64,000 bases of DNA from Escherichia phage vB-Eco-KMB37. The translations under genes were made by a program, and so were the position numbers. Under the pieces are notes generated by a model that was not told where the DNA came from, made no database searches, and was given only the letters and a program-made list of their open reading frames with translations. Where the stretch lies: the sequence record OR525700, one strand, 5' to 3'. Positions 6,358 through 21,477 of the stretch are shown piece by piece; within the stretch, counting starts at the first letter, position 1; each line of letters begins with the position of its first letter.

Positions 6358-7263
6358 TTATTTTTGAATAGTTGACTTGATAAGGTCTTGCATAATACCA
6401 CGGATTTCATTAAAGCACAGAAGGACAGATGCTTCAAAAGATCCTTCTTCGTCGTTAAAGTATTTAGGGAATTTAATACCACTCAACTTAAATTCTTTAT
6501 CAACAATAAAGTTAACGAAACCGTCATATTCCAGGCCAATGGCAACAACGTGCTTACCATCTTCCATAAGTTCTACTGCACGAGATTCGTAAAGGGATTC
6601 TTTACTCCATACAACCACACCTTCAGAATCTTCAAGTTTAATATAATTACCAAGAGTCAGTCGTTCAGCCTCATGTTCTTCTAAGATGGTATCGAAACCT
6701 TTAATAATGGCTTCTTCGTGTACACTAAACGGCAGAACTGGGAAAGTACCCAACACCTCACGAAGAAACACAGCAATATCTTCACTAATTTTCTTAGTAC
6801 CATTAAGAACGTAGGTAATACTGTTTTCAGTGTCTACAACAACATAGTTATAGAAATCATCTGCCTCTGTTTCTGGGAGCAGAGAAAACACGATATCAGC
6901 CTCAATTGCTTTTTTGCTTTCTTTGTCCAAGAAGAACTCTTTAGTAGGATTTGCAGCAATAAACTCTTGTTCCATCTCCTGGAGTTTTTCATTAAGAATG
7001 CGTTTAACTTTCTTCTTGTTAACTTTCTTAACAGACTGCCCTACTTTAATAACCTCTAAACCAGAGAACACTTTTACATAGGAACCATCATCTTCAAAAC
7101 GAACAAGACCAATGGTATGTGCTTGTTGCCCCTGTGCCACAACAAAATCCAGCGGTTTGTCTGTTACTGTGTTCAGTGCTGAAATAGACAGACCATCACC
7201 AGAAATCAGGGTTACGCAAGATTTGAAATTTTTAGCAAACATAGTTTTCTCCTCAAATAACAA
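6358..7263 (-). CDS. RdgC-like recombination-associated protein
   Basis: Central segment ADIVFSLLPETEA...VVVDTENS...DIAVFLREVLGTFPVLPFS aligns by eye with E. coli RdgC; ~300 aa size matches. Confidence 0.5.
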   Translation of the reverse strand: MLFEEKTMFAKNFKSCVTLISGDGLSISALNTVTDKPLDFVVAQGQQAHTIGLVRFEDDGSYVKVFSGLEVIKVGQSVKKVNKKKVKRILNEKLQEMEQEFIAANPTKEFFLDKESKKAIEADIVFSLLPETEADDFYNYVVVDTENSITYVLNGTKKISEDIAVFLREVLGTFPVLPFSVHEEAIIKGFDTILEEHEAERLTLGNYIKLEDSEGVVVWSKESLYESRAVELMEDGKHVVAIGLEYDGFVNFIVDKEFKLSGIKFPKYFNDEEGSFEASVLLCFNEIRGIMQDLIKSTIQK

Positions 7264-7531: not shown

Positions 7532-7543
7532 AATACCTCCAAT

Positions 7544-7569
7544 AAGCCCCCGAAGGGGCTTTATTTCTT
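7544..7569 (-). terminator. Intrinsic terminator-like hairpin
   Basis: AAGCCCC-CGAA-GGGGCTT hairpin immediately 3' of the 7568..8290 gene. Confidence 0.4.
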
Positions 7570-8290
7570 AAGCAATGATTGCTGCGATATTAGGTTTAAC
7601 AAAGGTAGATGGCTTCATAATTTTACCTTTGTCATCAAAGAATACGTATACCTTTTGAACTTCGTTATATACAGCATGTACTCCAGTATAAGAACCTTCT
7701 GCACGATCTTTGCTTCGCATCTCGATAGCATCACACTCTTTTTCAAGAGCTTCAACAATATCCTTAGTTTCCCAAATAGCCAGGAGTTGCTTCTTGGTAG
7801 GATACTTGGACTCATTGCTATTCAACACTTCACGCATAACCTTCTTCTCGTTATAAACAGAACGTACCAAAGTATCTCGTGCCATACGTGTAAGTGTAAG
7901 AGACATTAGGGCAAATTGCAAGTCATTTTCTACCATTTTATCAAATTCAATGATAACATCGTAAATGTTCTCTGCCAGAACATCTCCTGTCGGCATTTCC
8001 AGAGCTTTATCAACACCTTCTTTACCAAAGAACATAAATGCCAGGTAGGATGCTACCACAAAAATATCTGCTGCTGCATCAAGTAATTCAACGTGATCAT
8101 TTTCCTGTGCTGCTGCTTGAAACTCTTTAAGTTCTTCTCGTACAAAAGAAAGTTGAGCTTCAAACATCTCTTGAGTAAATTCTGGGGTTACTCCACCACG
8201 TGCCTTAGCATTCCAAGCAACAATTTGATCGGCAGCTTTGATAAAGAAGCTATTGTCCACTTTTACTTGTTTGAAAAAATTCTCGATCAT
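7568..8290 (-). CDS. MazG-like nucleotide pyrophosphohydrolase domain protein
   Basis: REELKEF...ELLDAAADIFVVASY resembles the all-alpha MazG/dUTPase-like motif. Confidence 0.4.
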   Translation of the reverse strand: MIENFFKQVKVDNSFFIKAADQIVAWNAKARGGVTPEFTQEMFEAQLSFVREELKEFQAAAQENDHVELLDAAADIFVVASYLAFMFFGKEGVDKALEMPTGDVLAENIYDVIIEFDKMVENDLQFALMSLTLTRMARDTLVRSVYNEKKVMREVLNSNESKYPTKKQLLAIWETKDIVEALEKECDAIEMRSKDRAEGSYTGVHAVYNEVQKVYVFFDDKGKIMKPSTFVKPNIAAIIA

Positions 8291-8299
8291 TGTTTCTCC

Positions 8300-8479
8300 T
8301 TATTTAAAATATTGTTCTAACAAAACACTAATGCGAACTACTGATTCGCCCATATACGCCCCAGCACAGAGGAAAACAACAAATCTACAAAAATTGCAGT
8401 ACCATTTATCCACTGGAAACGAGGCTAACATTATAATTGCAATAGCAATTAACATCATAAGAACTGTTACTAATACCAT
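8300..8479 (-). CDS. Small membrane protein
   Basis: Hydrophobic stretch VLVTVLMMLIAIAIIMLASF; start taken at the internal Met to avoid overlap with the ligase gene. Confidence 0.3.
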   Translation of the reverse strand: MVLVTVLMMLIAIAIIMLASFPVDKWYCNFCRFVVFLCAGAYMGESVVRISVLLEQYFK

Positions 8480-8487
8480 ATTACCTC

Positions 8488-9651
8488 TTACTCTGCTGGT
8501 TCCCAAGTACCTGGAATCATCTTACGTACACGTACCCCAACAGGCTTAGTAGGAATACCTTCGTCTGAAAATTCTTCGTACTCTATTTCAACAAATTGAC
8601 CAATAAGTGTCAAAGCATTTTCTTCTTTACGATAGTTAATGGTTTCATCTGAATCCTTACGCATCAGGAATTCGACTACTTTACCATTTTCCATCTCTCC
8701 TGTCAATACCCCGTCACCATTTTTATCACGCTTTGCACTTACCACTTTAACTTCAAGCGTCTGACGTGGTTTACGTTTAATAACATCATAAGAACGTTTA
8801 TCGAATTCGTAAACACCTTTTGCGTTACGATACACCACACCTTCCGCTTTCTCACGTAGGGCTTTTGCATAGAAAGCATCAAACTGTTCTTGGTTTTCAA
8901 TGTACTCTGTATGTACTACACAAATAAGTTCATCTAAACCCTTATCTTCAACAACTTCTTTTAGAGCAGCCAAAACTTGAACCCTCTTCTCAAATGGTAC
9001 AGATGGCACGGGAACATCATATACATAGTATTTAAGAAGCGGAGTGTTAGCATTATGCTTTTTCCACGCACTATTAATTTGTTGAAGGCTAAGGATACCC
9101 AAACCAGCAAAAACTTCACCGTCAAGAGGATGACCAACTACTTCTTTAATGAAGGTTGGGATTTCTTCCCAGTGAGGTGGAAGTTTATATACCTCCCCAG
9201 CTTTAGATAAACATTCACCTTGCATGTTAATCATTGAACGTAGACCATTCAATTTATATTGTGCATAACCAGGGAACAAAACACGATCAGCATAATCTTT
9301 ATAATCCTGACATTTCATGGGTGTGGAAGGAACATGGTTTTCAGCTTCCTCTTTTGTTTTATAGTACCCATTCTTAATTTGCTTTGTCCATTTGGCAAGA
9401 GCTTCTATTTCAGCTTGTTCTTCTGCTGTTGTTTCATTTGAGCGACCAATATTTTTAGGTTCTGCCGTATAAGATTTGCTAGTGATCTTTCCACCTAATT
9501 GACCATGAGCAACAGTTACAACACTACCTTCGGTATAGACTGACCACTGTCTAATTTTACCTGTAGAAGTTTTACCATATAATGTAGGATTAGTTTGTTT
9601 CATCTTTAACCTCCAGTTGCGAAAGAACCCATTTAGCCATTTCAATTTCAC
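8488..9651 (-). CDS. ATP-dependent DNA ligase
   Basis: Motif I QYKLNGLR (KxNG), plus EG-VV-type and K-x-K-type downstream motifs; 387 aa. Confidence 0.8.
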   Translation of the reverse strand: MKLKWLNGFFRNWRLKMKQTNPTLYGKTSTGKIRQWSVYTEGSVVTVAHGQLGGKITSKSYTAEPKNIGRSNETTAEEQAEIEALAKWTKQIKNGYYKTKEEAENHVPSTPMKCQDYKDYADRVLFPGYAQYKLNGLRSMINMQGECLSKAGEVYKLPPHWEEIPTFIKEVVGHPLDGEVFAGLGILSLQQINSAWKKHNANTPLLKYYVYDVPVPSVPFEKRVQVLAALKEVVEDKGLDELICVVHTEYIENQEQFDAFYAKALREKAEGVVYRNAKGVYEFDKRSYDVIKRKPRQTLEVKVVSAKRDKNGDGVLTGEMENGKVVEFLMRKDSDETINYRKEENALTLIGQFVEIEYEEFSDEGIPTKPVGVRVRKMIPGTWEPAE

Positions 9652-9793
9652 CGTGTAGTCTGCCTAGTTCATAGGCATCATCAATATTACCACCAGTGTA
9701 ATCATCCACCATAAAGTAAGGATCTTCACTACTGTTAGGCGCGTTTGCAATTCTCGTTAGTTCTTCAATAAATGTCATAGTTAACCTTACCAA
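9590..9793 (-). CDS. Hypothetical small acidic protein
   Basis: 67 aa, rich in D/E. Confidence 0.35.
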   Translation of the reverse strand: MVRLTMTFIEELTRIANAPNSSEDPYFMVDDYTGGNIDDAYELGRLHGEIEMAKWVLSQLEVKDETN

Positions 9794-10011
9794 TTATACA
9801 CAAGAGTTTGAATTTCTTCCATCAAATCTTCAAGATCTGTATCAACATATTCAGAAGATGTTGCCATAAAGTATGTAATCATTGTGAACCCTTCCGAAGA
9901 AAGGGCATCAAGGATATCATTAAACATATCTTCCATTTCAGTATTCTCACCAAATGAAAATAACATTTGTTGATCTTCGCTTACACCTTTAACATAGATA
10001 GCTGTGCTCAT
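9787..10011 (-). CDS. Hypothetical small acidic protein
   Basis: 74 aa, rich in D/E. Confidence 0.35.
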   Translation of the reverse strand: MSTAIYVKGVSEDQQMLFSFGENTEMEDMFNDILDALSSEGFTMITYFMATSSEYVDTDLEDLMEEIQTLVYNW

Positions 10012-10014
10012 ATA

Positions 10015-10335
10015 TTAATCCTTAAGACGTTCATTTAAATCTGTAATAACATCATTTAAATCTTCACATTCCAGTGTTAACTCTGAAACTTGTTCATTCA
10101 AACAAGAAACTTCTTCGTTTAGATCTGAAATAATGTTTTCTAATGAATCTACTTGGTCATCATATGCACGTTTTGTTTCTTCAAGTTCTTCCGTAAGATC
10201 ATTAATCAAACGGAGCAAAGATAAGATATAGCCGTCTCCTGTCTCGTTCCTCCACTCACTTCCGTAGCGATAAATAATAATTTCACCATCATCGACTACT
10301 GTAAAATACTTACCTTCACCAGAATAAATTTCCAT
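10015..10335 (-). CDS. Highly acidic coiled-coil protein (candidate DNA mimic / anti-defence)
   Basis: 106 aa, roughly 30 percent D+E, heptad-like LxxL/E-rich C-terminal half. Confidence 0.4.
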   Translation of the reverse strand: MEIYSGEGKYFTVVDDGEIIIYRYGSEWRNETGDGYILSLLRLINDLTEELEETKRAYDDQVDSLENIISDLNEEVSCLNEQVSELTLECEDLNDVITDLNERLKD

Positions 10336-10343
10336 ACACTCTC

Positions 10344-10748
10344 CTATTGTAGCTTAAGTGAACTGCGAAGACGTTTCTCTTGCTGATCACGAATATGTTG
10401 TGGAACCTCATGAATTGAGTCGTTACCGTGCCTATTTTCAACAACTAAAGAGATAACTTGATAACCAAACTCTTCAGCAAGAGTTAAATAAGGTTTAAGT
10501 TCTTTCTCTGTGGTTGAAGTGTTAGAGACAATAATCTTTTTAATATTAGATGCCATAGCATCACGAACAATACTCTGACACCATGCGTGGGCTTTACCTA
10601 CATTTTCTGGCTTCCAATCGTAAACACCACTTTCTGTGTAATGGTATTGATCTGCCTCACAGATAGGCCAATAACCTTCAGAAATAATTTCTGCTACTGT
10701 AGATTTACCTGCACCTGAAACACCACGTAAAATGATAAGTTGTTTCAT
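10344..10748 (-). CDS. P-loop polynucleotide kinase-like protein
   Basis: ILRGVSGAGKSTVA Walker A in a 134-aa protein, resembling the T4 Pnk kinase domain. Confidence 0.55.
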   Translation of the reverse strand: MKQLIILRGVSGAGKSTVAEIISEGYWPICEADQYHYTESGVYDWKPENVGKAHAWCQSIVRDAMASNIKKIIVSNTSTTEKELKPYLTLAEEFGYQVISLVVENRHGNDSIHEVPQHIRDQQEKRLRSSLKLQ

Positions 10749-11681
10749 TTAGCCTCCAAAGAAGTTTTCTATTTCTTTACGTCGCTCTTGTGGATCTAGA
10801 GCAGCCCATTGAACCTTCGTAAAGTTATTTCTAAGCCATTCTAGCAAAGTATAATATTCTTCGTCAACAATTTGTTTAGCATTATTTGGGTTGTCCCAAA
10901 TCATATCCCACTTCTTATTGCCACCACGCATAAGGAACTTCTTAGCAAGATAGTATGGTGACTTAATCTTTAAGAGTAAGTTAAACGGGTAGTTTGTTTC
11001 ACGAACAACAAAGCCTTCGTGTCTACAATGTTTAGACATTTCAACAACATCTGAAAATTTAATCATCGGATAAACTTCAGGACGTTTAAATTTTGTAATA
11101 GATGCAATCCCATCAAGAACACCTTCAGGTAACATGAAACTTGTCCCATCAAGATTTTGAATTCTTGCTCCAATTAAGTATGCGCCTGGTTCTTCTTCGA
11201 CAATATGTGGATCAGAAGGATCACAGATTTCAAAAAGGAAAGTTGCTTTTGCACTTTCTGTCCACTTAATGAAATACTCTATGTCATCACATTCGGAAAC
11301 AATACGGTTCTTGGCAATAGTTGCAAAGTCTGACTCTAGGCTCCCTGTTGTTGATACAACAAGTTGCCCTTTGTACACACCTACAGATGCCATAAAACCG
11401 TTTACTTTACGGACAGCATCTACAATTTCGTCTGCTGGAAGATCTGTACCATTTTCAAAACGATTAAAAATTTTAGTAAAAGGCCAAATAACAACATTGT
11501 CTTCTGAGTCAACAACCAACCCACGACAATCTAAAAGTCGTTTGTCAACGTTCCACAAGTTATCCCAGAATACATTGTTTTTGTATTTAAGTACAGCAAG
11601 ACCAGCATACTCTCCAGATTTAACTTCTTTTTTATGCACTAAACCTTTTGCAATCAGGTCATCACAATTGAACTTAGCCAC
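10749..11681 (-). CDS. Putative RNA ligase (covalent nucleotidyltransferase)
   Basis: Motif I RKVNGFMA (KxNG), motif IV-like EGFVVRE, motif V-like LLLKIKSPYY; distinct from the DNA ligase at 8488..9651. Confidence 0.5.
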   Translation of the reverse strand: MAKFNCDDLIAKGLVHKKEVKSGEYAGLAVLKYKNNVFWDNLWNVDKRLLDCRGLVVDSEDNVVIWPFTKIFNRFENGTDLPADEIVDAVRKVNGFMASVGVYKGQLVVSTTGSLESDFATIAKNRIVSECDDIEYFIKWTESAKATFLFEICDPSDPHIVEEEPGAYLIGARIQNLDGTSFMLPEGVLDGIASITKFKRPEVYPMIKFSDVVEMSKHCRHEGFVVRETNYPFNLLLKIKSPYYLAKKFLMRGGNKKWDMIWDNPNNAKQIVDEEYYTLLEWLRNNFTKVQWAALDPQERRKEIENFFGG

Positions 11682-11682
11682 C

Positions 11683-12234
11683 TTAATCTCCTTTGATTAT
11701 CTTATGATGATCTACAACAACAATATCACGCTTATCCATAATAGAGATGATTTCGTCAAAATGCAAGATTTTCCCGTGTGCATCCCAACCAACATCCAAC
11801 ATTTTCCCATACAAATGATCAGGGAATGATCCGTGAGAGTGTCCGTGTAGCATGATTGATCCATGCCCTTGTTTATTCCAGGCAGCCATAGGGTAATGAC
11901 TTAAGACGAAGAACAGCTTCTGATATTTCACTTCGTCATAATACACAACTTCTCCATACTCTGCAAGCACTTTTCTGTGTTTGCTGTAATCATGGTTCCC
12001 AACACAGTAAGTAATATCCCCTTGGAGACGGGAAGCAATCTTACGGGTATCTTCTTCAGTCCCGAAACAGAAGTCCCCAAGATGGTACATCTTTACTCCT
12101 GGTGTTGTGGCACATTTATTCCATGCTTCGATCAGTGCTTCTGTCATATGCTCCATATCTTCCCACGGACGATATTCAGGAGCAAACTCTCGGATACGTT
12201 TGTGCATAAAATGCAAATCACTTGTAATAAACAT
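11683..12234 (-). CDS. Calcineurin-like metallophosphoesterase
   Basis: DLHFMH, GDFCFG, GNHD, and HGHSHG motifs (DxH...GDxxD...GNH[DE]...GH.H). Confidence 0.7.
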   Translation of the reverse strand: MFITSDLHFMHKRIREFAPEYRPWEDMEHMTEALIEAWNKCATTPGVKMYHLGDFCFGTEEDTRKIASRLQGDITYCVGNHDYSKHRKVLAEYGEVVYYDEVKYQKLFFVLSHYPMAAWNKQGHGSIMLHGHSHGSFPDHLYGKMLDVGWDAHGKILHFDEIISIMDKRDIVVVDHHKIIKGD

Positions 12235-12596
12235 TAGTATAATCCCTCGCTGAATAGTTCACTGTTGTGACCATTTCTTTCGTAGTTAATTTGTTTGGCG
12301 TTATCTGCAATGATATAAGCATCTTTGCGACTCCACCAGTTATAATACTGATCAATAAACCCTTGATTATCAGGTAAGCAAAACAGTTTATCGATCAATC
12401 CTGCATCTTTTAAAACATTAAGTTGTGCAGATAGTACAGGATTTGCATGCCTAACACAAGGAATAATTAACTCTTCGCCATTGTTAAGAATATACTTGTT
12501 CGCAGCGCAGACTATAACACGTTGAGCATAGTGATCCTCACCAATCCAAGTGAGAGGTTGGTAACAAATATCATGTTGATTAGTAGCGCACATCAA
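12234..12596 (-). CDS. Hypothetical protein
   Basis: 120-aa ORF. Confidence 0.4.
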   Translation of the reverse strand: MMCATNQHDICYQPLTWIGEDHYAQRVIVCAANKYILNNGEELIIPCVRHANPVLSAQLNVLKDAGLIDKLFCLPDNQGFIDQYYNWWSRKDAYIIADNAKQINYERNGHNSELFSEGLY

Positions 12597-12751
12597 TTTT
12601 CTCCATACTCTTTTAATTTATCAGCGAAAAAACTGTAATCAGGAAGTAAAAGATCATTACTCGTATCGCTCCAGTTCTCTTCCTCTCTATAGATAAAATG
12701 CCCTTCATCCTCTTCTTGCTCTGACCAAACTGAATAATGCATAATACCTAC

Positions 12752-15141: not shown

Positions 15142-16035
15142 ATGAAAGTTAGTATTCTACATGGTGTTGACTGTTATGTTACTGATGTAGACGTTAAAGT
15201 CTTTACATTCTCTGGTGGAGAACAACATGTTCAACTAGACACGAATCTATCAGGTTTCAATCATGCTACAGACAGAATCTTACTCTCTTTAGAAGTAAGA
15301 TCTGCTAAAGACTTGATGACTTTGGTTATGACTAAGAATGCATTGGACAATATGCTATATCATAAACCATATTGTGTTGATTTACTCATGTTGTATGTGC
15401 CGTATGCACGACAAGACAGAGTGTGTGAGCCTGGGGAAGCATTCGGAGTTAAAGCCTTTGCTTCTATAATTAATTCATTAAATTTCTCACGTGTTATCGT
15501 TGCTGATCCACATAGTGATGTTACTCCGGCAGTGTTTGACAGACTCTGTGTAATACCTCAAGAAGAGATTGCTTACGAAACTTTAAAGTGGAAGTTACGT
15601 ATGGAGAATTTTGCTCTTGTTAGTCCTGATGGTGGTGCTCTTAAGAAAATATTTAAATTATCTAAGAAAATGTCTTTAGATGTGTTCTGTGCAGAGAAGG
15701 TTAGAGATACTGCAACAGGTGCTATTGTTCGTACAGACATTTCTGTACAGGATTTCAATAAGCGTAACCTGATGATCGTAGATGATATCTGTGACGGCGG
15801 TAGAACTTTTATTGAATTGGCTAAAGTGCTACGTGCTCGTAACGCAGGTAAGATTGAGTTATATGTTACACACGGTATCTTTTCTAAAGGTCTTAAAGAG
15901 TTAAGTGAGCACTTTGACTGCATTCATTCTCTTAATGTGTGGGAAGATAACATCCAAGAAGATTCCGGTGTTCTTGTTAAGAATCAGTCAGATTTGCAAC
16001 AACAAATTGTATCTCCATACGTGTGGAATTTTTAA
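15142..16035 (+). CDS. Ribose-phosphate pyrophosphokinase homolog (Prs-like; possibly an ADP-ribose pyrophosphate synthetase of a NAD+ reconstitution pathway)
   Basis: YARQDR and PRPP-binding MIVDDICDGGRT motifs align with E. coli Prs (YARQDRR, VLVDDMIDTGGT). Confidence 0.8.
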   Translation: MKVSILHGVDCYVTDVDVKVFTFSGGEQHVQLDTNLSGFNHATDRILLSLEVRSAKDLMTLVMTKNALDNMLYHKPYCVDLLMLYVPYARQDRVCEPGEAFGVKAFASIINSLNFSRVIVADPHSDVTPAVFDRLCVIPQEEIAYETLKWKLRMENFALVSPDGGALKKIFKLSKKMSLDVFCAEKVRDTATGAIVRTDISVQDFNKRNLMIVDDICDGGRTFIELAKVLRARNAGKIELYVTHGIFSKGLKELSEHFDCIHSLNVWEDNIQEDSGVLVKNQSDLQQQIVSPYVWNF

Positions 16036-16045
16036 ATAATAAGTG

Positions 16046-16074
16046 TTGACAATAGGGAGTATGCTTAGTAAGAT
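16046..16074 (+). promoter_or_regulatory. Sigma70-like promoter
   Basis: TTGACA-N17-TAAGAT upstream of the NAMPT-like gene. Confidence 0.5.
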
Positions 16075-16106
16075 ACTCCCACACTAACAAACAAGGAGAC
16101 ATAACT

Positions 16107-17840
16107 ATGAATATTTTTGCACCTTTTGCTACTGATTGGTATAAACCTGGTCACAAGCAGATGTACAACCAAAATACAAAACTCATTTTCTCTAATTTAA
16201 CTCCTCGTAATGATAAAAACTTTGCACACTATGCAGATCGTGAAGCACGTGGTGTAATTGTTTTAGGTATTCGTCGAGCAGTTACTGATGCTCTTGTAAC
16301 TATGTGGGATAGCTTCTTTAAAATGTCTCGTAGTGCAGCAGTAAATAAATTTTATCGTATGTCTAAAAATGCATTAGGTGCTTCTGCTCCTTCTGCTGAA
16401 TGTTGGGGAGAATTGCACGATTTAGGTTATCTTCCGCTGGAAGTTCGATCTCTGCCAGAAGGTGTTTTGTGTCCTATTGGTGTTCCTGTGTTTACTGTGC
16501 ATAATACTTTAGAAAAATTCTTTTGGTTAACTAACTATGTGGAAACACTATTGTCAGATGAAACTTGGAAGACAATGACTAATGCTACAGCAGCTTTTCA
16601 GTATAAGCGTATTGCTATGGCATATGCGATGGCAACGTGTGATAATATTGATCATGTTAACTTCCAGTGTCATGATTTTAGCCTACGTGGTTTAAGTAAT
16701 ATCGAAGATGGTTATAAGAGTGGTATCGCTCATTTGGCATCTTTCACAGGAACAGATAACATTCTGGCTATTGAGACTGTGCATGATTATTATGGTATTG
16801 ATTATGATCAGTTTGTTGCAGGTTCTATTCCGGCAACAGAACATTCAGTAGCAACGACTAACATTGGAGCTATTGTTGAAGATCTGAAGAAACATTTCCC
16901 ACATCTTAAAGATGATGTTGATGGGCTTCGTTATGTAGCAGAGAAAGAGTTTCTTCGCCGCTATATTGAAGAAATTGTTCCAGAAGGTTTTTGTTCATAT
17001 GTAGCAGATTCTTATGACTACTGGGCTGTCTTGACTCGCATTCTGGTCGAGTTGAAAGATTCCATTATGTCACGAAATGGTCGTCTTGTTATTCGTCCAG
17101 ATTCAGGAGATCCGGTTAAAGTTGTTGCAGGATACAATGTTGAATCTTTTGATAACTATGAAGACCTTTTAAATAATGGTATTGCTACAGCCACTGAAGT
17201 AGTTCATTTGGCTGATGTTAATAAGTATTACAATGTTCTTCAGGATTGCAGTGTTGCTGATTGTATTGATGAAACTTATGAGATTCCTTATTGTGAAGCA
17301 GTAGGTTCTATTCAAATCCTTTGGGAAGTGTTTGGTGGTACTATCAACCGAAAAGGCTACAAGGTTCTTGATCAGCACATCGGTATGATTTATGGTGATT
17401 CTATTACTGTTGAACGAGAACACGAAATCTTACGCCGACTGAAGAAGAAAGGTTTTGCAGCTTCCAATATTGTATTTGGTGTTGGTAGTTATACTTATCA
17501 GTTCAATACACGAGATACTTTTGGTTTTGCTGTTAAAGCAACAGGTAGTATCATCGGTGAACACGAAATTTTGGTAAGTAAGGAGCCTAAAACTGATCCT
17601 GGTAAACGTTCTGCAAAAGGTTTTATTAAGGTTGTTAAGGATACAAACGGTAAAATTTCTCTCGTGGATAATCTTTCTTTTAAAGATATTCAAGATGAAG
17701 ACAATGAGTTAAAAGTTATCTTCAGGGATGGTACGGTTATTACACCACAAGTAGAAGGACGTGATGAAACATTTACGGATATCCGCAATCGTGTTGATGT
17801 AGAGGTTCTTCGTACTATGGGAACCATCCAGGTTGACTAA
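16107..17840 (+). CDS. Nicotinamide phosphoribosyltransferase family protein (NadV/NAMPT-like; possibly Namat)
   Basis: 577 aa; N-terminal DWYKPGHKQMY and overall NAMPT-like architecture; adjacent to the Prs-like gene. Confidence 0.8.
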   Translation: MNIFAPFATDWYKPGHKQMYNQNTKLIFSNLTPRNDKNFAHYADREARGVIVLGIRRAVTDALVTMWDSFFKMSRSAAVNKFYRMSKNALGASAPSAECWGELHDLGYLPLEVRSLPEGVLCPIGVPVFTVHNTLEKFFWLTNYVETLLSDETWKTMTNATAAFQYKRIAMAYAMATCDNIDHVNFQCHDFSLRGLSNIEDGYKSGIAHLASFTGTDNILAIETVHDYYGIDYDQFVAGSIPATEHSVATTNIGAIVEDLKKHFPHLKDDVDGLRYVAEKEFLRRYIEEIVPEGFCSYVADSYDYWAVLTRILVELKDSIMSRNGRLVIRPDSGDPVKVVAGYNVESFDNYEDLLNNGIATATEVVHLADVNKYYNVLQDCSVADCIDETYEIPYCEAVGSIQILWEVFGGTINRKGYKVLDQHIGMIYGDSITVEREHEILRRLKKKGFAASNIVFGVGSYTYQFNTRDTFGFAVKATGSIIGEHEILVSKEPKTDPGKRSAKGFIKVVKDTNGKISLVDNLSFKDIQDEDNELKVIFRDGTVITPQVEGRDETFTDIRNRVDVEVLRTMGTIQVD

Positions 17841-18694: not shown

Positions 18695-18780
18695 GCAAGT
18701 GTGGTGGAATTGGTGATACACATTGTGCTTAAAACGCAACGCTTAAATGATTGAGGGTTCGAATCCCTCCACTTGCACCA
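18695..18780 (+). tRNA. tRNA-Leu (anticodon TAA), type II
   Basis: Acceptor GCAAGTG/CACTTGC, loop CTTAAAA, long variable arm, T-arm GAGGG-TTCGAAT-CCCTC, CCA encoded. Confidence 0.7.
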
Positions 18781-18782
18781 AC

Positions 18783-18890
18783 GCCTAGTAGGGTATTTGG
18801 TAATTCCGAGGCCATCAAAGCCTGAAAAATATGTTAGACCGTTTTGTCTAACTAAATACGAAATATGGTTCGATTCCATAACTAGGCTCC
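18783..18890 (+). tRNA. Atypical tRNA-like element (about 107 nt)
   Basis: Perfect 7-bp acceptor pairing GCCTAGT/ACTAGGC and T-arm TATGG-TTCGATT-CCATA, but about 32 nt too long, with an extra 7-bp hairpin GTTAGAC/GTCTAAC; anticodon not resolved. Confidence 0.3.
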
Positions 18891-18923
18891 CGATTTAAAT
18901 AGTAATTTTTTAATAAAAATATC

Positions 18924-18952
18924 TTGACATTTACTTAGTTTTTTGTTATAGT
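18924..18952 (+). promoter_or_regulatory. Sigma70-like promoter
   Basis: TTGACA-N17-TATAGT. Confidence 0.55.
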
Positions 18953-18963
18953 CATTATGAAAA

Positions 18964-19045
18964 CGGGGTGTATCTCACCTGACTTCTAATCAGGCGTTAA
19001 CCGAGTAATTGGAGTATGCAGGTTCGAATCCTGTCACCCCGGCCA
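18964..19045 (+). tRNA. Atypical tRNA-like element (anticodon-like loop TCT, Arg-like)
   Basis: Perfect acceptor CGGGGTG/CACCCCG, stem-loop CCTGA-CTTCTAA-TCAGG, T-arm GCAGG-TTCGAAT-CCTGT, CCA; no canonical D-arm and a 24-nt insert before the T-arm. Confidence 0.35.
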
Positions 19046-19063
19046 AAAAGTTTTAAAAACTAC

Positions 19064-19092
19064 TTGACAAGCAAGATAGTTTTATGTTAGAT
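19064..19092 (+). promoter_or_regulatory. Sigma70-like promoter
   Basis: TTGACA-N17-TTAGAT. Confidence 0.5.
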
Positions 19093-19108
19093 TTAAAGTA
19101 TGGTAACA

Positions 19109-19198
19109 GGAAGGTAGGGCGCAGCGGTGCGCAACCAGGTTTGAACCCTGGCCCATTGTAGCGATACGGTGATGGTTCGACTCCATTATCTTCCTCCA
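19109..19198 (+). tRNA. tRNA-Ser (anticodon TGA), type II
   Basis: Acceptor GGAAGGT/ATCTTCC, anticodon arm CCAGG-TTTGAAC-CCTGG, long variable arm, CCA. Confidence 0.65.
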
Positions 19199-19216
19199 AA
19201 TTCGCTTAGGAGCTTT

Positions 19217-19369
19217 ATGAATTATAAAACTATTGGACAGGTTGTTACCGGAGTTAAGATTGTAGATAATAAAGTTGTTTATGAGTATTCTAATCTTCAA
19301 CAATCTGAAGATGGTAAAAATATTCGTATGGTAAAAGCAGAACAAAAAGATTCCGGTTGTTTTGAATAA
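19217..19369 (+). CDS. Hypothetical small protein (50 aa)
   Basis: AGGAG RBS then ATG at 19217; the longer track ORF would start inside the preceding tRNA. Confidence 0.35.
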   Translation: MNYKTIGQVVTGVKIVDNKVVYEYSNLQQSEDGKNIRMVKAEQKDSGCFE

Positions 19370-19377
19370 TTAATAAC

Positions 19378-19463
19378 GGTAGATTGGTGAAATGGTAGCC
19401 ACAACAGTTTGCTAAACTGTAGTCGGAAACGGCGTGTAGGTTCAAGTCCTACATCTACCGCCA
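19378..19463 (+). tRNA. tRNA-Ser (anticodon GCT), type II
   Basis: Acceptor GGTAGAT/ATCTACC, anticodon arm ACAGT-TTGCTAA-ACTGT, long variable arm, discriminator G, CCA. Confidence 0.7.
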
Positions 19464-19597
19464 AGTTATCTTTAATGTAGCTTGTAATCTTACTTTAATA
19501 GAGTAAATCTTCGGCAAGTGGCGGTAACCACTTTACCGATACCCTAATACTTCATAGTCAAGTGCCGCAAACACTGGCTATTTTAAAGATAATTTAT

Positions 19598-19673
19598 ACA
19601 TCGTTAGCTTAGTTGGTAGAGCAAGGGGCTTTTAACTCCAAGGTCGAAGGTTCGAATCCTTCACGATGTACCA
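19598..19673 (+). tRNA. tRNA-Lys (anticodon TTT)
   Basis: Acceptor ACATCGT/ACGATGT, loop CTTTTAA, T-arm GAAGG-TTCGAAT-CCTTC, CCA. Confidence 0.7.
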
Positions 19674-19678
19674 AACAC

Positions 19679-19765
19679 GTAGGTATCGCATAGCGGCAAT
19701 TGCTGGAGACTGTAAATCTCCTGCCCTTCGGGGCTTCGTTGGTTCGAGTCCAACTACCTGCACCA
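19679..19765 (+). tRNA. tRNA-Tyr (anticodon GTA), type II
   Basis: Anticodon arm GGAGA-CTGTAAA-TCTCC, long variable arm, T-arm GTTGG-TTCGAGT-CCAAC, CCA. Confidence 0.7.
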
Positions 19766-19772
19766 AATTAAA

Positions 19773-19857
19773 GATGGATTGGCCTAGTGGTTGGGCGACG
19801 GACTGTTAATCCGTGAACGAAAGTTCTAGCAAGGTTCAAATCCTTGATCCATCGCCA
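19773..19857 (+). tRNA. Type II (long-variable-arm) tRNA with Asn anticodon GTT
   Basis: Perfect acceptor GATGGAT/ATCCATC, 3-bp D-stem, anticodon arm ACGGA-CTGTTAA-TCCGT, 15-nt variable arm with GAAC-GAAA-GTTC hairpin, discriminator G, CCA. Confidence 0.6.
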
Positions 19858-19864
19858 GAATCAT

Positions 19865-19941
19865 GGACTTGTAGAGTTAAGGTAAACCCTCAGTCGCCAA
19901 GAGGCTTCTGGAATTGCAGGTATCGAATCCTGCCGAGTCCA
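19865..19941 (+). tRNA. Atypical tRNA-like element (anticodon unresolved)
   Basis: Acceptor GGACTTG/CGAGTCC pairs well; T-loop has 8 nt (TATCGAAT); no clean 5-bp/7-nt anticodon arm; no encoded CCA. Confidence 0.3.
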
Positions 19942-19947
19942 ATTATT

Positions 19948-20022
19948 GCTCCTATCGTATAACGGCTATTACGGTTGCCTTGTAAGCAACTTATCAGGGT
20001 TCGAGTCCTTGTGGGAGCACCA
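19948..20022 (+). tRNA. tRNA-Thr (anticodon TGT)
   Basis: Acceptor GCTCCTA/TGGGAGC, anticodon arm GTTGC-CTTGTAA-GCAAC, CCA. Confidence 0.7.
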
Positions 20023-20045
20023 ATTTTAACTCTAAAGGAGTGTAT

Positions 20046-20369
20046 GTGACAGAAAAAGAGTTAGAGAAATATTTTAATATCAATGTTTTCGATGGTTTTG
20101 ATGATATTGAAGATGTTGAAAGATATTATGAAGTAGAGTTAGATAAGGATAACATTGTAATTCTTTCTGCCACTTATGATTGTGCATATTATGAAGGTGA
20201 ATCTCACGTTTATTTTTATGATATGAAAACATCTTTGTTTTATGAAGTACACGCATATCATTGTTCTTGTTATGGTTTAGAAGGTCAGTGGGAACCTGAA
20301 GAAATAGGTGATTTGGACTTTACTATTGCATATCTAAACAGACGTGGTGCATCTACTATTTTAAAATAA
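20046..20369 (+). CDS. Hypothetical protein
   Basis: AAGGAG RBS; likely GTG start at 20046 (track start 20040 lies inside the RBS). Confidence 0.45.
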   Translation: MTEKELEKYFNINVFDGFDDIEDVERYYEVELDKDNIVILSATYDCAYYEGESHVYFYDMKTSLFYEVHAYHCSCYGLEGQWEPEEIGDLDFTIAYLNRRGASTILK

Positions 20370-20383
20370 ATATCAAAAGCCTC

Positions 20384-20413
20384 TTGACAAAGGGGCTAAT
20401 AATATGTTAGAGT
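20384..20413 (+). promoter_or_regulatory. Sigma70-like promoter
   Basis: TTGACA-N17-TAGAGT-like. Confidence 0.5.
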
Positions 20414-20424
20414 AATATTGTTAA

Positions 20425-20499
20425 GCGGGTATAGTGTTAATGGTAGCATATGAGGTTTCCACCCTCCAGGTGCAGGTTCAAGTCCTGTTACTCGCTCCA
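20425..20499 (+). tRNA. tRNA-Gly (anticodon TCC)
   Basis: Acceptor GCGGGTA/TACTCGC, loop TTTCCAC, T-arm GCAGG-TTCAAGT-CCTGT, CCA. Confidence 0.7.
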
Positions 20500-20517
20500 A
20501 GATTATTTAAATGGAAT

Positions 20518-20570
20518 CGCTAGAGAAAATTTCTCTTTTCGCTCATGGTTTTCTCCTTCAAACTCTAGCG
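20518..20570 (+). other. Structured spacer between tRNA-Gly and tRNA-Gln (nested inverted repeats)
   Basis: Outer 8-bp inverted repeat CGCTAGAG...CTCTAGCG enclosing hairpin GAGAAA/TTTCTC. Confidence 0.3.
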
Positions 20571-20598
20571 GTTCTTTTTAAGTGATTTTTAGTTTTAT

Positions 20599-20673
20599 TG
20601 GAGATTAGCCTAGTGGGAAGGCAACGGCCTTTGAAGTCGTGATGACTAGGTTCGATTCCTAGATCTCCAGCCA
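20599..20673 (+). tRNA. tRNA-Gln (anticodon TTG)
   Basis: Acceptor TGGAGAT/ATCTCCA, anticodon arm ACGGC-CTTTGAA-GTCGT, T-arm CTAGG-TTCGATT-CCTAG, CCA. Confidence 0.75.
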
Positions 20674-20680
20674 ATATTTA

Positions 20681-20756
20681 CAGTGCGTAGCGCAGTTGGT
20701 AGCGTGGGAGCTTTGGATGCTTCGGGTCGCAGGTTCGAGTCCTGCCGCACTGACCA
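20681..20756 (+). tRNA. tRNA-Pro (anticodon TGG)
   Basis: Acceptor CAGTGCG/CGCACTG, anticodon arm GGAGC-TTTGGAT-GCTTC, T-arm GCAGG-TTCGAGT-CCTGC, CCA. Confidence 0.75.
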
Positions 20757-20761
20757 AATTT

Positions 20762-20836
20762 GCAGAGATAGCTGAGACGGATTAGTGCTACCCTGAAAAG
20801 GTAGAAAGGATGGATCGTTACCATCTCTCTGCACCA
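20762..20836 (+). tRNA. tRNA-Phe (anticodon GAA)
   Basis: Acceptor GCAGAGA/TCTCTGC, anticodon arm CTACC-CTGAAAA-GGTAG, CCA. Confidence 0.7.
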
Positions 20837-20913
20837 AATAACACCATCCAAGGAGTAGACTTGGTTAACTGTCAATAGCACATTGAGGCTTCTTACAGTG
20901 GTGTACTTATTAT

Positions 20914-20998
20914 GGCTAAGTGGTGGAATGGTATACACGATACGCTTAGAACGTATTGCCCCAGTGGATTGTGAGTTCGAGTCTCACCTTAGCTACCA
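20914..20998 (+). tRNA. tRNA-Leu (anticodon TAG), type II
   Basis: Anticodon arm ATACG-CTTAGAA-CGTAT, long variable arm, T-arm GTGAG-TTCGAGT-CTCAC, CCA. Confidence 0.7.
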
Positions 20999-21085
20999 TA
21001 TCTAAGAGATATCATAGGGTTTGCAACGGATATCTACCGTCCTATTAAGGATACCACGCCAAGACGGGTTATAAAGGGTTAGCCA

Positions 21086-21161
21086 TTGATAGTGTGAAGC
21101 TGGCGTTTCGAGTGCTTTCATAAGGCATTGCGAGAAGAGTTCGATTCTCTTACTATCAACC
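21086..21161 (+). tRNA. tRNA with CAT anticodon (Met or Ile2)
   Basis: Acceptor TGATAGT/ACTATCA, loop TTCATAA with wobble-containing stem, T-arm AAGAG-TTCGATT-CTCTT, CCA. Confidence 0.55.
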
Positions 21162-21177
21162 AAATTACTACAGATTG

Positions 21178-21256
21178 CGCGGGATAGAGGAGTCTGGTCG
21201 TCCTCGCCAGTTTCATATGCTGGAGATCATCGGTTCGAATCCGATTTCCGCCTCCA
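21178..21256 (+). tRNA. tRNA with CAT anticodon (Met or Ile2), boundaries approximate
   Basis: D-stem AGGA/TCCT, loop TTCATAT, T-arm ATCGG-TTCGAAT-CCGAT; acceptor pairing imperfect. Confidence 0.5.
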
Positions 21257-21332
21257 ATAAATACCTCCCTTCTGGTGTAATGATTAAATTACATTGACAC
21301 TTCAAGGAACTCATAGCCGGGTAGATTTAAAA

Positions 21333-21397
21333 GAGTATGGTACTCAATATGGCTCCAAACCATAGATCAAGGGGTTCGATTCCTCACCTTGCTGCCA
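21333..21397 (+). tRNA. Possible tRNA-Trp (anticodon CCA), 5' boundary uncertain
   Basis: Anticodon arm TATGG-CTCCAAA-CCATA and T-loop TTCGATT plus CCA are clear; no acceptable 5' acceptor strand found with a normal D-arm. Confidence 0.3.
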
Positions 21398-21401
21398 ATA
21401 T

Positions 21402-21477
21402 TGTGGTATCGTACAGATGGTTAGTACACTCGACCGATAATCGAGAAACAACGGTTCGACTCCGTTTACCACGACCA
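21402..21477 (+). tRNA. tRNA-Ile (anticodon GAT)
   Basis: Acceptor TGTGGTA/TACCACG, D-stem GTAC/GTAC, anticodon arm CTCGA-CCGATAA-TCGAG, CCA. Confidence 0.7.

Follow-up and report, generated by a model that had tools for sequence, protein, structure and literature searches.

Three small acidic proteins encoded between the DNA ligase and RNA repair genes of a phi92-like phage, one of them a plausible but unproven nucleic-acid mimic

Three consecutive acidic genes

Escherichia phage vB-Eco-KMB37 is a phi92-like E. coli myovirus of the genus Justusliebigvirus, subfamily Stephanstirmvirinae. We analysed a stretch of 64,000 nt from its sequence record OR525700, hereafter the window, to which all positions refer, and concentrated on three consecutive minus-strand open reading frames (ORFs) at 9590-10335. 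These frames, ORF A, ORF B and ORF C, encode small and strongly acidic proteins and are flanked by an ATP-dependent DNA ligase gene on one side and by an RNA repair cassette on the other (Table 1). An earlier note on this DNA had described the run in these terms and proposed its members as DNA mimics or anti-defence candidates; the run, its acidity and the flanking genes are as the note had them, and the functional proposal is weighed below. Over region 8400-12300 the sequence is 97-98% identical along its full length to vB_EcoM_ESCO32, Nernie, alia and the BASEL phages EmilieFrey and JohannJBalmer.

A, B and C are real genes, their frames being intact in all relatives examined (8 of 8 Justusliebigvirus genomes, the window and seven others). 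Over these eight genomes the ratio of nonsynonymous to synonymous polymorphism (pN/pS) averages 0.59 in A and 0.019 in B, and it is 0 in C, where there are zero amino-acid changes. The same measure gives 0.089 for the DNA ligase, 0.12 for the RNA ligase, 0.33 for the polynucleotide kinase (PNK)-like kinase and 0.034 for the phosphoesterase nearby. B and C are therefore under strong purifying selection, and A is under weaker selection and is comparatively fast-changing, being 91-98% identical in other Justusliebigvirus phages. Ribosome-binding sites are readily seen, AGGAG 5 nt upstream of the ATG of A and AAGGA 8 nt upstream of B. For C, the ATG at 9778 has AAGG 7 nt upstream, is the start in every annotated relative and is likely the true start, so that the 67 aa counted earlier for this protein become 62 aa, while the sizes given for A and B stand.

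All three proteins fall in uncharacterised phage families without an assigned function, and they are annotated as hypothetical in more than 100 genomes. Their full-length PHROG matches are to phrog_18076 for A (E 1.6e-52), phrog_16431 for B (E 4.8e-40) and phrog_24346 for C (E 1.4e-48), with phrog_3052 as a further family for A and phrog_2900 for B. The tblastn hits of B and C correspond to Phi92_gp093 and Phi92_gp092. The name 'hol-like chemotaxis' attached to A is a label inherited from phrog_18076, and one paper just repeats it; we rejected it as unsupported.

The acidity of the run is exceptional and clustered. A, B and C carry net charges of -21, -15 and -10, each with a pI of ~4.05, and B holds just one basic residue. 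Asp and Glu together make up 21.6% of B and 22.6% of C; for A, which had been put at about 30% acidic, the overall figure is 27.4%, and 30% is reached in the C-terminal 71 residues. In a ranking of 83 greedily chosen non-overlapping ORFs of the window by negative charge per residue, they take 2nd to 4th place. An equally acidic three-gene run arises in 0.35% of gene-order permutations, and in 1.9% if the shuffling is confined to the 36 small ORFs. The window proteome is acidic overall, its median pI being 5.3, and several further small ORFs come close to the three in acidity. Small acidic proteins are moreover a well-known kind in phages, most of whose genomes hold several. Between genera, the acidity of A and B is kept at 39-49% identity, and the sequence of the A helix has diverged.

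The most acidic ORF of the window lies five genes upstream of the run. It encodes 49 aa with 28.6% Asp and Glu and a net charge of -11, and its Phapecoctavirus counterpart, of 47 aa, reaches 36%.

The predicted acidic rod of ORF A and its likeness to T7 gp5.9

The AlphaFold2 model of A, built as a monomer from 19 sequences, divides the protein into two parts. The N-terminal part is a beta-meander with strands at residues 2-5, 10-15 and 18-23 and a predicted local distance difference test score (pLDDT) of ~70, and residues 34-105 form one uninterrupted helix of 72 residues at pLDDT 92-98. A coiled-coil C-terminal half had been claimed for this protein; the model and the heptad analysis both predict the heptad helix, but extend it over about two thirds of A. 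Hydrophobic residues occupy 18 of the 21 a and d positions, mostly Val or Ile at a and Leu at d, a pattern that favours parallel dimers under the Harbury rules. The acidic residues of the helix point the other way, 15 of 21 being placed at the exposed b, c and f positions. The helix is thus predicted to form a parallel coiled coil which, as a dimer, would be ~107 Å long, equivalent to ~31 bp. A search with the fold of A returned generic helices.

The beta-domain, of about 35 aa, carries the motif GKY..x..G.....R.G..WR..TGD, which in the family version reads GKY...G.....R.G..WR..TGD..L.L. When residues 1-47 of A were compared with 1.84 billion representative proteins, 40 clusters were found at E ≤ 1e-3. 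The majority are small proteins, 60-208 aa long, in which the motif recurs and the remainder is completely different. K9, Y10, R23, W28 and G33 are invariant in 28 of 28 aligned sequences. By tblastn the domain occurs in ~200 phage records, all of them large myoviruses and none annotated for it, with hosts among Escherichia, Klebsiella, Vibrio, Shewanella, Pseudoalteromonas and Bacillus (Bastillevirinae). Four distant loci of the family are small-gene arrays, three of which stand beside DNA or nucleotide metabolism genes, with no constant partner. In the Bacillus phage Saddex the A-family gene lies between the ribonucleotide reductase subunits, and in Pseudoalteromonas phage H101 between a ligase and an exonuclease. 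The Phapecoctavirus homologue of A, 37% identical overall, keeps the length, the heptads and the 30% acidity with a different sequence. Over the wider family, by contrast, the C-terminal parts vary. Because the pI there ranges from 4.05 to 6.8, the acidic rod of A is a lineage-specific addition and not a defining trait of the family.

Some of the longer proteins among the A-domain hits contain the domain in multiple repeats, matching residues 6-40 of A up to seven times, and most of the multi-repeat hits that were scanned carry B_lectin domains (bulb-type lectin, beta-prism II, PF01453). The N-domain of A may accordingly resemble one hairpin unit of a beta-prism II lectin, a weak likeness drawn at the level of repeats and through third proteins. 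The B_lectin domain has three subdomains with the mannose-binding motif QxDxNxVxY, whereas A has a single hairpin unit in which the Q and the N of the motif are replaced. A B_lectin identity for the N-domain was rejected, as PF01453 is not among the best 25 of 49 weak Pfam matches and the sugar motif is lost.

This likeness bears on the possibility that A, B and C are ordinary proteins whose acidity is incidental, A being for example a coiled-coil oligomer with a lectin-like head that serves in assembly or as a scaffold, and B and C unrelated fillers. Such a view, which we think unlikely, can draw on the repeated hairpin of B_lectin, on the acidity of the whole proteome and of other small ORFs nearby, and on the extreme acidity of A not being conserved in its family. 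A virion structural protein is also among the weak PHROG matches of A, and the weak PHROG and Pfam hits of T7 gp5.9, to which A is compared below, include head-scaffolding families. However, the genes sit in a repair and replication block, the mannose-binding motif is lost, and the a/d pattern of A fits a dimer, whereas a beta-prism head would call for a trimer. The incidental view also has to account for the acidity that A and B maintain between genera despite identities of 39-49%, and for a clustering that exceeds chance.

The protein that A most resembles in design is gp5.9 of phage T7, the only coiled-coil DNA mimic known from nature. Previous work showed that gp5.9 is a parallel coiled-coil dimer braced by a short N-terminal beta-sheet, with a pI of 4.0, and that it blocks the DNA site of RecBCD (PMC9836394). 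It also inhibits MukBEF. The gp5.9 sequence used here agrees with PDB 8b1r at 52 of 52 residues; the protein belongs to PF25708 and phrog_9014. Both A and gp5.9 are small, with a pI of about 4, and consist of an N-terminal beta element followed by a heptad helix with exposed Asp and Glu. Computed as a dimer, the A helix bears 0.39 acidic residues per Å, the same as gp5.9, and its net negative charge per Å is 0.30 where that of gp5.9 is 0.28. In T7, gp5.9 is encoded among DNA metabolism genes, as A is here. The two differ in the length of the helix, which in gp5.9 measures 56 Å, or 17 bp equivalents, and in the beta-domain, which in A is larger, independently conserved and joined to quite different C-termini in other phages.

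Common descent of A and gp5.9 was considered on account of a local W....GYI.SL likeness; this likeness does not rise above heptad-preserving shuffles, so we rejected it. A profile of the A family did not retrieve gp5.9 from the PDB at E ≤ 1, and phrog_9014 is absent from the PHROG hits of A at E ≤ 0.01.

By analogy with gp5.9, we propose that A may be a dimeric acidic rod that competes with DNA for a host enzyme, and that A, B and C together may be acidic binders. We give this reading a probability of roughly 0.3. It draws on architecture, charge density, faster evolution and genomic context, all of them indirect. We regard A as a plausible but unproven nucleic-acid mimic; its dimerisation, its target and any counter-defence role of the three proteins are inferences.

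Several results weigh against this proposal. BLASTP gives no alignment between gp5.9 and A, hhalign gives a probability of 13% (P 0.002), and the A-family hidden Markov model scores gp5.9 at 7.0 bits, a value that 8.3% of heptad-preserving shuffles attain. The invariant residues of the N-domain are basic or aromatic, and C-terminal parts that vary in pI from 4.05 to 6.8 mean that mimicry cannot be the function of the A family. The predicted fold of B, described below, brought up de novo Top7-like designs and peptidase subdomains in a fold search, and no mimic. B and C are also invariant core genes of their lineage, unlike typical anti-defence genes, which are variable. The DNA-mimic proposal of the earlier note is partly supported. 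The model gives A a beta-sheet followed by an outwardly acidic helix with, as a dimer, the charge density of gp5.9, which together with the gene neighbourhood keeps A a candidate, but B is predicted to be Top7-like with no mimic match, C is confined to one genus, and the extreme acidity of A does not extend to its wider family.

ORFs B and C and type I restriction

The AlphaFold2 model of B rests on a three-sequence alignment and reaches a pLDDT of 87.7 and a predicted template modelling score (pTM) of 0.77. It shows a beta-beta-alpha-beta-alpha order, in which a three-stranded sheet lies under two helices as a two-layer alpha/beta fold. Inspection of the sequence against the predicted elements places most of the acidic residues on both helices and leaves the strands hydrophobic, an arrangement that hints at oligomerisation of B or at the binding of a partner through the sheet. 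In BFVD, the significant matches are uncharacterised Stephanstirmvirinae proteins, a protein of Citrobacter phage Moon and one unnamed virus entry, and weaker matches (E 0.009-0.04) are Pseudomonas phage proteins.

B occurs in 131 phage records by tblastn, at 100% identity in most of Justusliebigvirus, 54% in the tuntematon/nieznany type and 39% in the anhysbys type (Phapecoctavirus). Its place was compared in three Stephanstirmvirinae lineages and is always at or near the DNA ligase: in Phapecoctavirus B immediately precedes the ligase, and in Justusliebigvirus a single gene separates the two. C was found by tblastn in 55 records, all of them Justusliebigvirus and all at least 95% identical, and it forms one cluster in a collection of 5.8 billion proteins. 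Neither tblastn nor the protein-cluster search found relatives of C beyond the genus, and C has no match in Pfam, NCBIfam or the PDB. A number of records of ~146 kb labelled 'Campylobacter phage' (MG065639, MG065645, MG065656, MG065689 and others) hold genes 98-100% identical to those of Justusliebigvirus and are probably mislabelled or contaminant assemblies.

In the Phapecoctavirus phage tuntematon (locus L003, 2862-4225) three genes are missing together, those for the RNA ligase, the PNK-like kinase and the A homologue. Still present are the phosphoesterase, a zinc-ribbon protein, B and the ligase, with two unrelated small genes in the gap. B thus follows the ligase side of the module, and A the RNA repair side.

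Such linkage raises the possibility that the three proteins are partners of the phage's own enzymes, B and C acting with the ligase, A on the side of the PNK and the RNA ligase, as adaptors, chaperones or timing inhibitors with no anti-defence role. We consider this the main alternative, possible though somewhat doubtful. In its favour, B is kept near the ligase across lineages and is retained in tuntematon where A, the RNA ligase and the PNK are lost; selection on B and C is very strongly purifying, and both are present in every genome of the lineage; and A-family genes elsewhere stand in DNA or nucleotide metabolism clusters, as in Saddex and H101. The end of C overlaps the start of the ligase, which suggests coupled translation, but tight spacing is the rule across the gene block and lends this point little weight. 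Against this view stands the Vequintavirus rV5, which has the ligase, PNK, RNA ligase and MazG module without A, B or C: a profile search of its whole genome for the A domain, B and C found no homologue (best E 0.044), and the two proteins upstream of its ligase are unrelated and not notably acidic. We also know of no phage ATP-dependent ligase that works with a small acidic cofactor.

The earlier note had likened the three proteins specifically to Ocr, and this resemblance was not borne out. Ocr (T7 gp0.3) and ArdA are small acidic DNA mimics of phages and plasmids that inhibit type I restriction enzymes, and A, B and C are likewise small and acidic. They differ from both, however, in having no sequence or fold similarity to them. 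Searches of Pfam, PHROGs, NCBIfam and the PDB with single sequences and family profiles gave no sequence match of A, B or C to Ocr, ArdA, gp5.9 or anti-CRISPR proteins. Neither Ocr (PF08684) nor ArdA (PF07275) appeared in Pfam at E ≤ 1, where the best 25 of 49 matches of A were coiled-coil noise, those of B were DUF4177 and WAPL noise, and C had nothing.

Plating data for relatives of the window bear on the same question. The BASEL phages Bas60-62 carry B and C at 100% identity, and the first 53 residues of A in Bas61 and Bas62 are 87-96% identical to those in the window. Their efficiency of plating is 0.1-0.7 on the type I system EcoKI, with 12-14 sites, and 0.5-1.3 on the type I system EcoCFT_I, with 7-9 sites, and they form no plaques on EcoRI and EcoRV (type II) or EcoP1 (type III) (PMC8594841, supplement). 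The data set also includes a siphovirus that has three EcoKI sites and an efficiency of plating of ~1e-4, and the Vequintavirus phages Bas57-59, which with ~15 EcoKI sites show as weak a type I effect as Bas60-62. The BASEL authors attributed the poor performance of the type I systems to the rarity of sites and called the phages 'exceptionally susceptible' to restriction (PMC8594841). The use of this phrase as a refutation of an Ocr-like role was rejected, because the raw type I data show near-insensitivity.

The published text and the raw plating results are thus not in full accord. Phi92-like and Vequintavirus phages, with 7-15 sites, are almost unaffected by both type I systems, and they are fully blocked by EcoRI and EcoRV and some of them by EcoP1 (PMC8594841, supplementary file 7).

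We find it highly improbable that one or more of A, B and C is an Ocr/ArdA-type mimic that blocks type I restriction-modification. Small size and a pI of ~4 would suit such a role, as would the near-normal plating of Bas60-62 on EcoKI and EcoCFT_I despite the presence of sites. Against it stand the lack of any Ocr or ArdA match in the searches and of a structural match for B, and the explanation by site rarity that the BASEL authors prefer. Moreover, since Bas57-59 behave alike and rV5 lacks homologues, the type I plating phenotype of this phage group does not track A, B and C. The Bas60-62 data leave room for an escape mechanism specific to type I systems, but they give an Ocr-like role no support.

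A further argument for that role might be sought in the sister genus. Between its A and B homologues, Phapecoctavirus encodes an acidic zinc ribbon of 61-63 aa (loci L002:3813-4004 and L003:3819-4004) and has no C. This protein matches the profile of the restriction alleviation protein Lar, TIGR03655, over its full length but below the cut-off (E 1.6e-4, 21.9 against 39.6 bits). Lar-like only at this sub-threshold level, it has no Pfam hit and no homologue in the window. C, for its part, has another position and another sequence and contains no cysteines. TIGR03655 was not found for A, B or C in NCBIfam at E ≤ 1, for A among its 25 best families. The name 'restriction alleviation protein' in the SKA64 record was considered for these genes and rejected: it means the Phapecoctavirus zinc ribbon with its sub-threshold TIGR03655 match, which is absent here.

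Gene neighbourhood and a possible mechanism

The genes around the run are collected in Table 1. Upstream of A lie the kinase, RNA ligase and metallophosphoesterase genes, and downstream of C the DNA ligase is followed by a 59-aa membrane protein, a MazG-like pyrophosphohydrolase and an RdgC-family protein. The RdgC-family gene, the ligase and a nearby exonuclease mark the block as a recombination and repair module.

Table 1. Features in and around the acidic run, in positions of the 64,000-nt window
Feature	Position	Strand	Description
RdgC-family protein	6358-7242	minus	PF04381; 'recombination-associated exonuclease' in relatives
GC-rich hairpin	7536-7561		AAGCCCC-CGAA-GGGGCTT; just past the MazG-like gene
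MazG-like nucleotide pyrophosphohydrolase	7568-8290	minus	PF01503, phrog_671
ATP-dependent DNA ligase	8488-9603	minus	downstream of the run; start overlaps end of C by 14 nt
ORF C	9590-9778	minus	62 aa from ATG (67 aa from TTG at 9793); phi92 gp092 orthologue; phrog_24346
ORF B	9787-10011	minus	74 aa; phi92 gp093 orthologue; phrog_16431
ORF A	10015-10335	minus	106 aa; phi92 gp094 orthologue; phrog_18076
ORF A, acidic heptad helix (predicted)	10021-10236	minus	residues 34-105; AlphaFold2, heptad analysis
ORF A, N-terminal beta-meander domain (predicted)	10237-10335	minus	residues 1-33; AlphaFold2, profile scan
PNK-like P-loop kinase	10344-10748	minus	upstream of A
T4 Rnl1-family RNA ligase	10749-11681	minus	PF09511; upstream of A
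Metallophosphoesterase	11683-12234	minus	upstream of A
'Anti-restriction nuclease' of the ESCO32 record	12234-12593	minus	119 aa
Most acidic ORF of the window	12593-12742	minus	49 aa
PRPP-synthetase-like gene, then NAPRTase-family gene	15142-17840	plus	PF00156, PF14572; 577 aa, PF04095
tRNA array	18695-21477	plus	15 genes, including tRNA-Thr(UGU)

The neighbourhood of A, B and C is rich in counter-defence and repair genes, namely the RNA repair cassette, the MazG/Atd1-like gene, a NARP1-like pair and the tRNAs. The pair consists of the PRPP-synthetase-like gene and the NAPRTase-family gene, which we take to resemble the NAD-reconstitution counter-defence pair NARP1 (Osterman et al. 2024). The MazG-like enzymes of Justusliebigvirus and Phapecoctavirus have been listed as the anti-TIR factor Atd1, which degrades (p)ppGpp (PMC11724313; bioRxiv 10.1101/2022.06.09.495361). 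The ESCO32 record names the 119-aa gene next to the metallophosphoesterase 'anti-restriction nuclease', but Pfam gives no hit for it and its PHROG is one of no known function.

Taken as products, A, B and C may be non-enzymatic, strongly acidic cytoplasmic binding proteins from three unrelated and uncharacterised families confined to phages. If A acts in the manner of gp5.9, two copies would pair along the 72-residue heptad helix to give a parallel coiled coil of ~107 Å, whose outward b, c and f positions would bear ~0.4 negative charges per Å. The conserved N-terminal beta-domain would brace and target this rod. The rod could then take the place of DNA in the binding site of some host enzyme that attaches to DNA or moves along it; first among the candidates is an end-processing enzyme of the RecBCD type. 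On this view, B and C would act as compact acidic binders of the same or of neighbouring host targets, with B as the constant partner of the ligase side. That A evolves faster (pN/pS 0.59) than the neighbouring genes (0.03-0.33) would fit contact with a partner in the host.

The small proteins stand directly beside a PNK and RNA ligase cassette, a placement reminiscent, by context only, of the logic of Stp, PrrC, Pnk and Rnl1 in T4. That phage combines an anti-restriction factor, Stp (26 aa), with Pnk and Rnl1, which repair the tRNA cut by the guardian nuclease PrrC. According to a 2026 preprint, RecBCD inhibitors set off guardians that cut tRNA, OLD among them, and OLD can in turn be countered by tRNAs of phages, of which tRNA-Thr(UGU) is one (bioRxiv 10.64898/2026.07.10.737580). 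Given this triggering of guardians, an inhibitor encoded beside RNA repair and tRNA genes would be coherent. P2 Old does not restrict Bas60-62 (PMC8594841, supplement); this insensitivity was considered as a case against a RecBCD inhibitor and set aside as uninformative, since the phages carry tRNAs and RNA repair genes.

A more far-reaching version of the proposal can be formulated, again by analogy, and we hold it to be distinctly unlikely. At ~31 bp, A would open the class of long coiled-coil DNA mimics and, after gp5.9, be only the second natural example of a coiled-coil mimic at all, an acidic zipper set on a targeting beta-domain that large myoviruses of Gram-negative and Gram-positive hosts have in common. 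The adjacent RNA repair genes and tRNAs would mend the damage that guardians (OLD, retron, PrrC) inflict in response to a RecBCD-like block, and B and C would be further inhibitors made from the same operon.

As they stand, A, B and C are conserved uncharacterised genes, ordinary in kind, of which there are thousands in phage genomes. If A is a coiled-coil mimic, the architecture would have arisen more than once. It would offer a modular template of a conserved beta-domain and a tunable acidic rod, and the position of the gene would link such an inhibitor, directed at a host function that targets DNA, with the RNA repair genes that would handle the backlash. If, on the other hand, the three proteins serve the phage ligase and RNA repair enzymes, they would represent new cofactors of this machinery. 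The points of greatest interest are the quantitative likeness between A and gp5.9 and the spread of the A N-domain with swapped C-termini, together with the confidently predicted Top7-like fold of B and the gap between text and raw data on type I restriction (PMC8594841).

The minus-strand block is packed throughout. Gaps are 0-8 nt in the stretch of the kinase, RNA ligase and phosphoesterase genes, 3-8 nt or replaced by overlaps around A, B and C, and 0-10 nt or overlaps over the whole long block. As all lie in one tightly packed gene block, A, B and C are probably made together with the phage nucleic-acid repair genes. Within the A-B-C block no promoter or terminator stands out, and promoter-like sites are not enriched over shuffles; the region holds no Rfam family and no notable repeat. 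Further along, the hairpin just past the MazG-like gene has a terminator score on either strand, and a transcription unit of the minus-strand block probably stops there.

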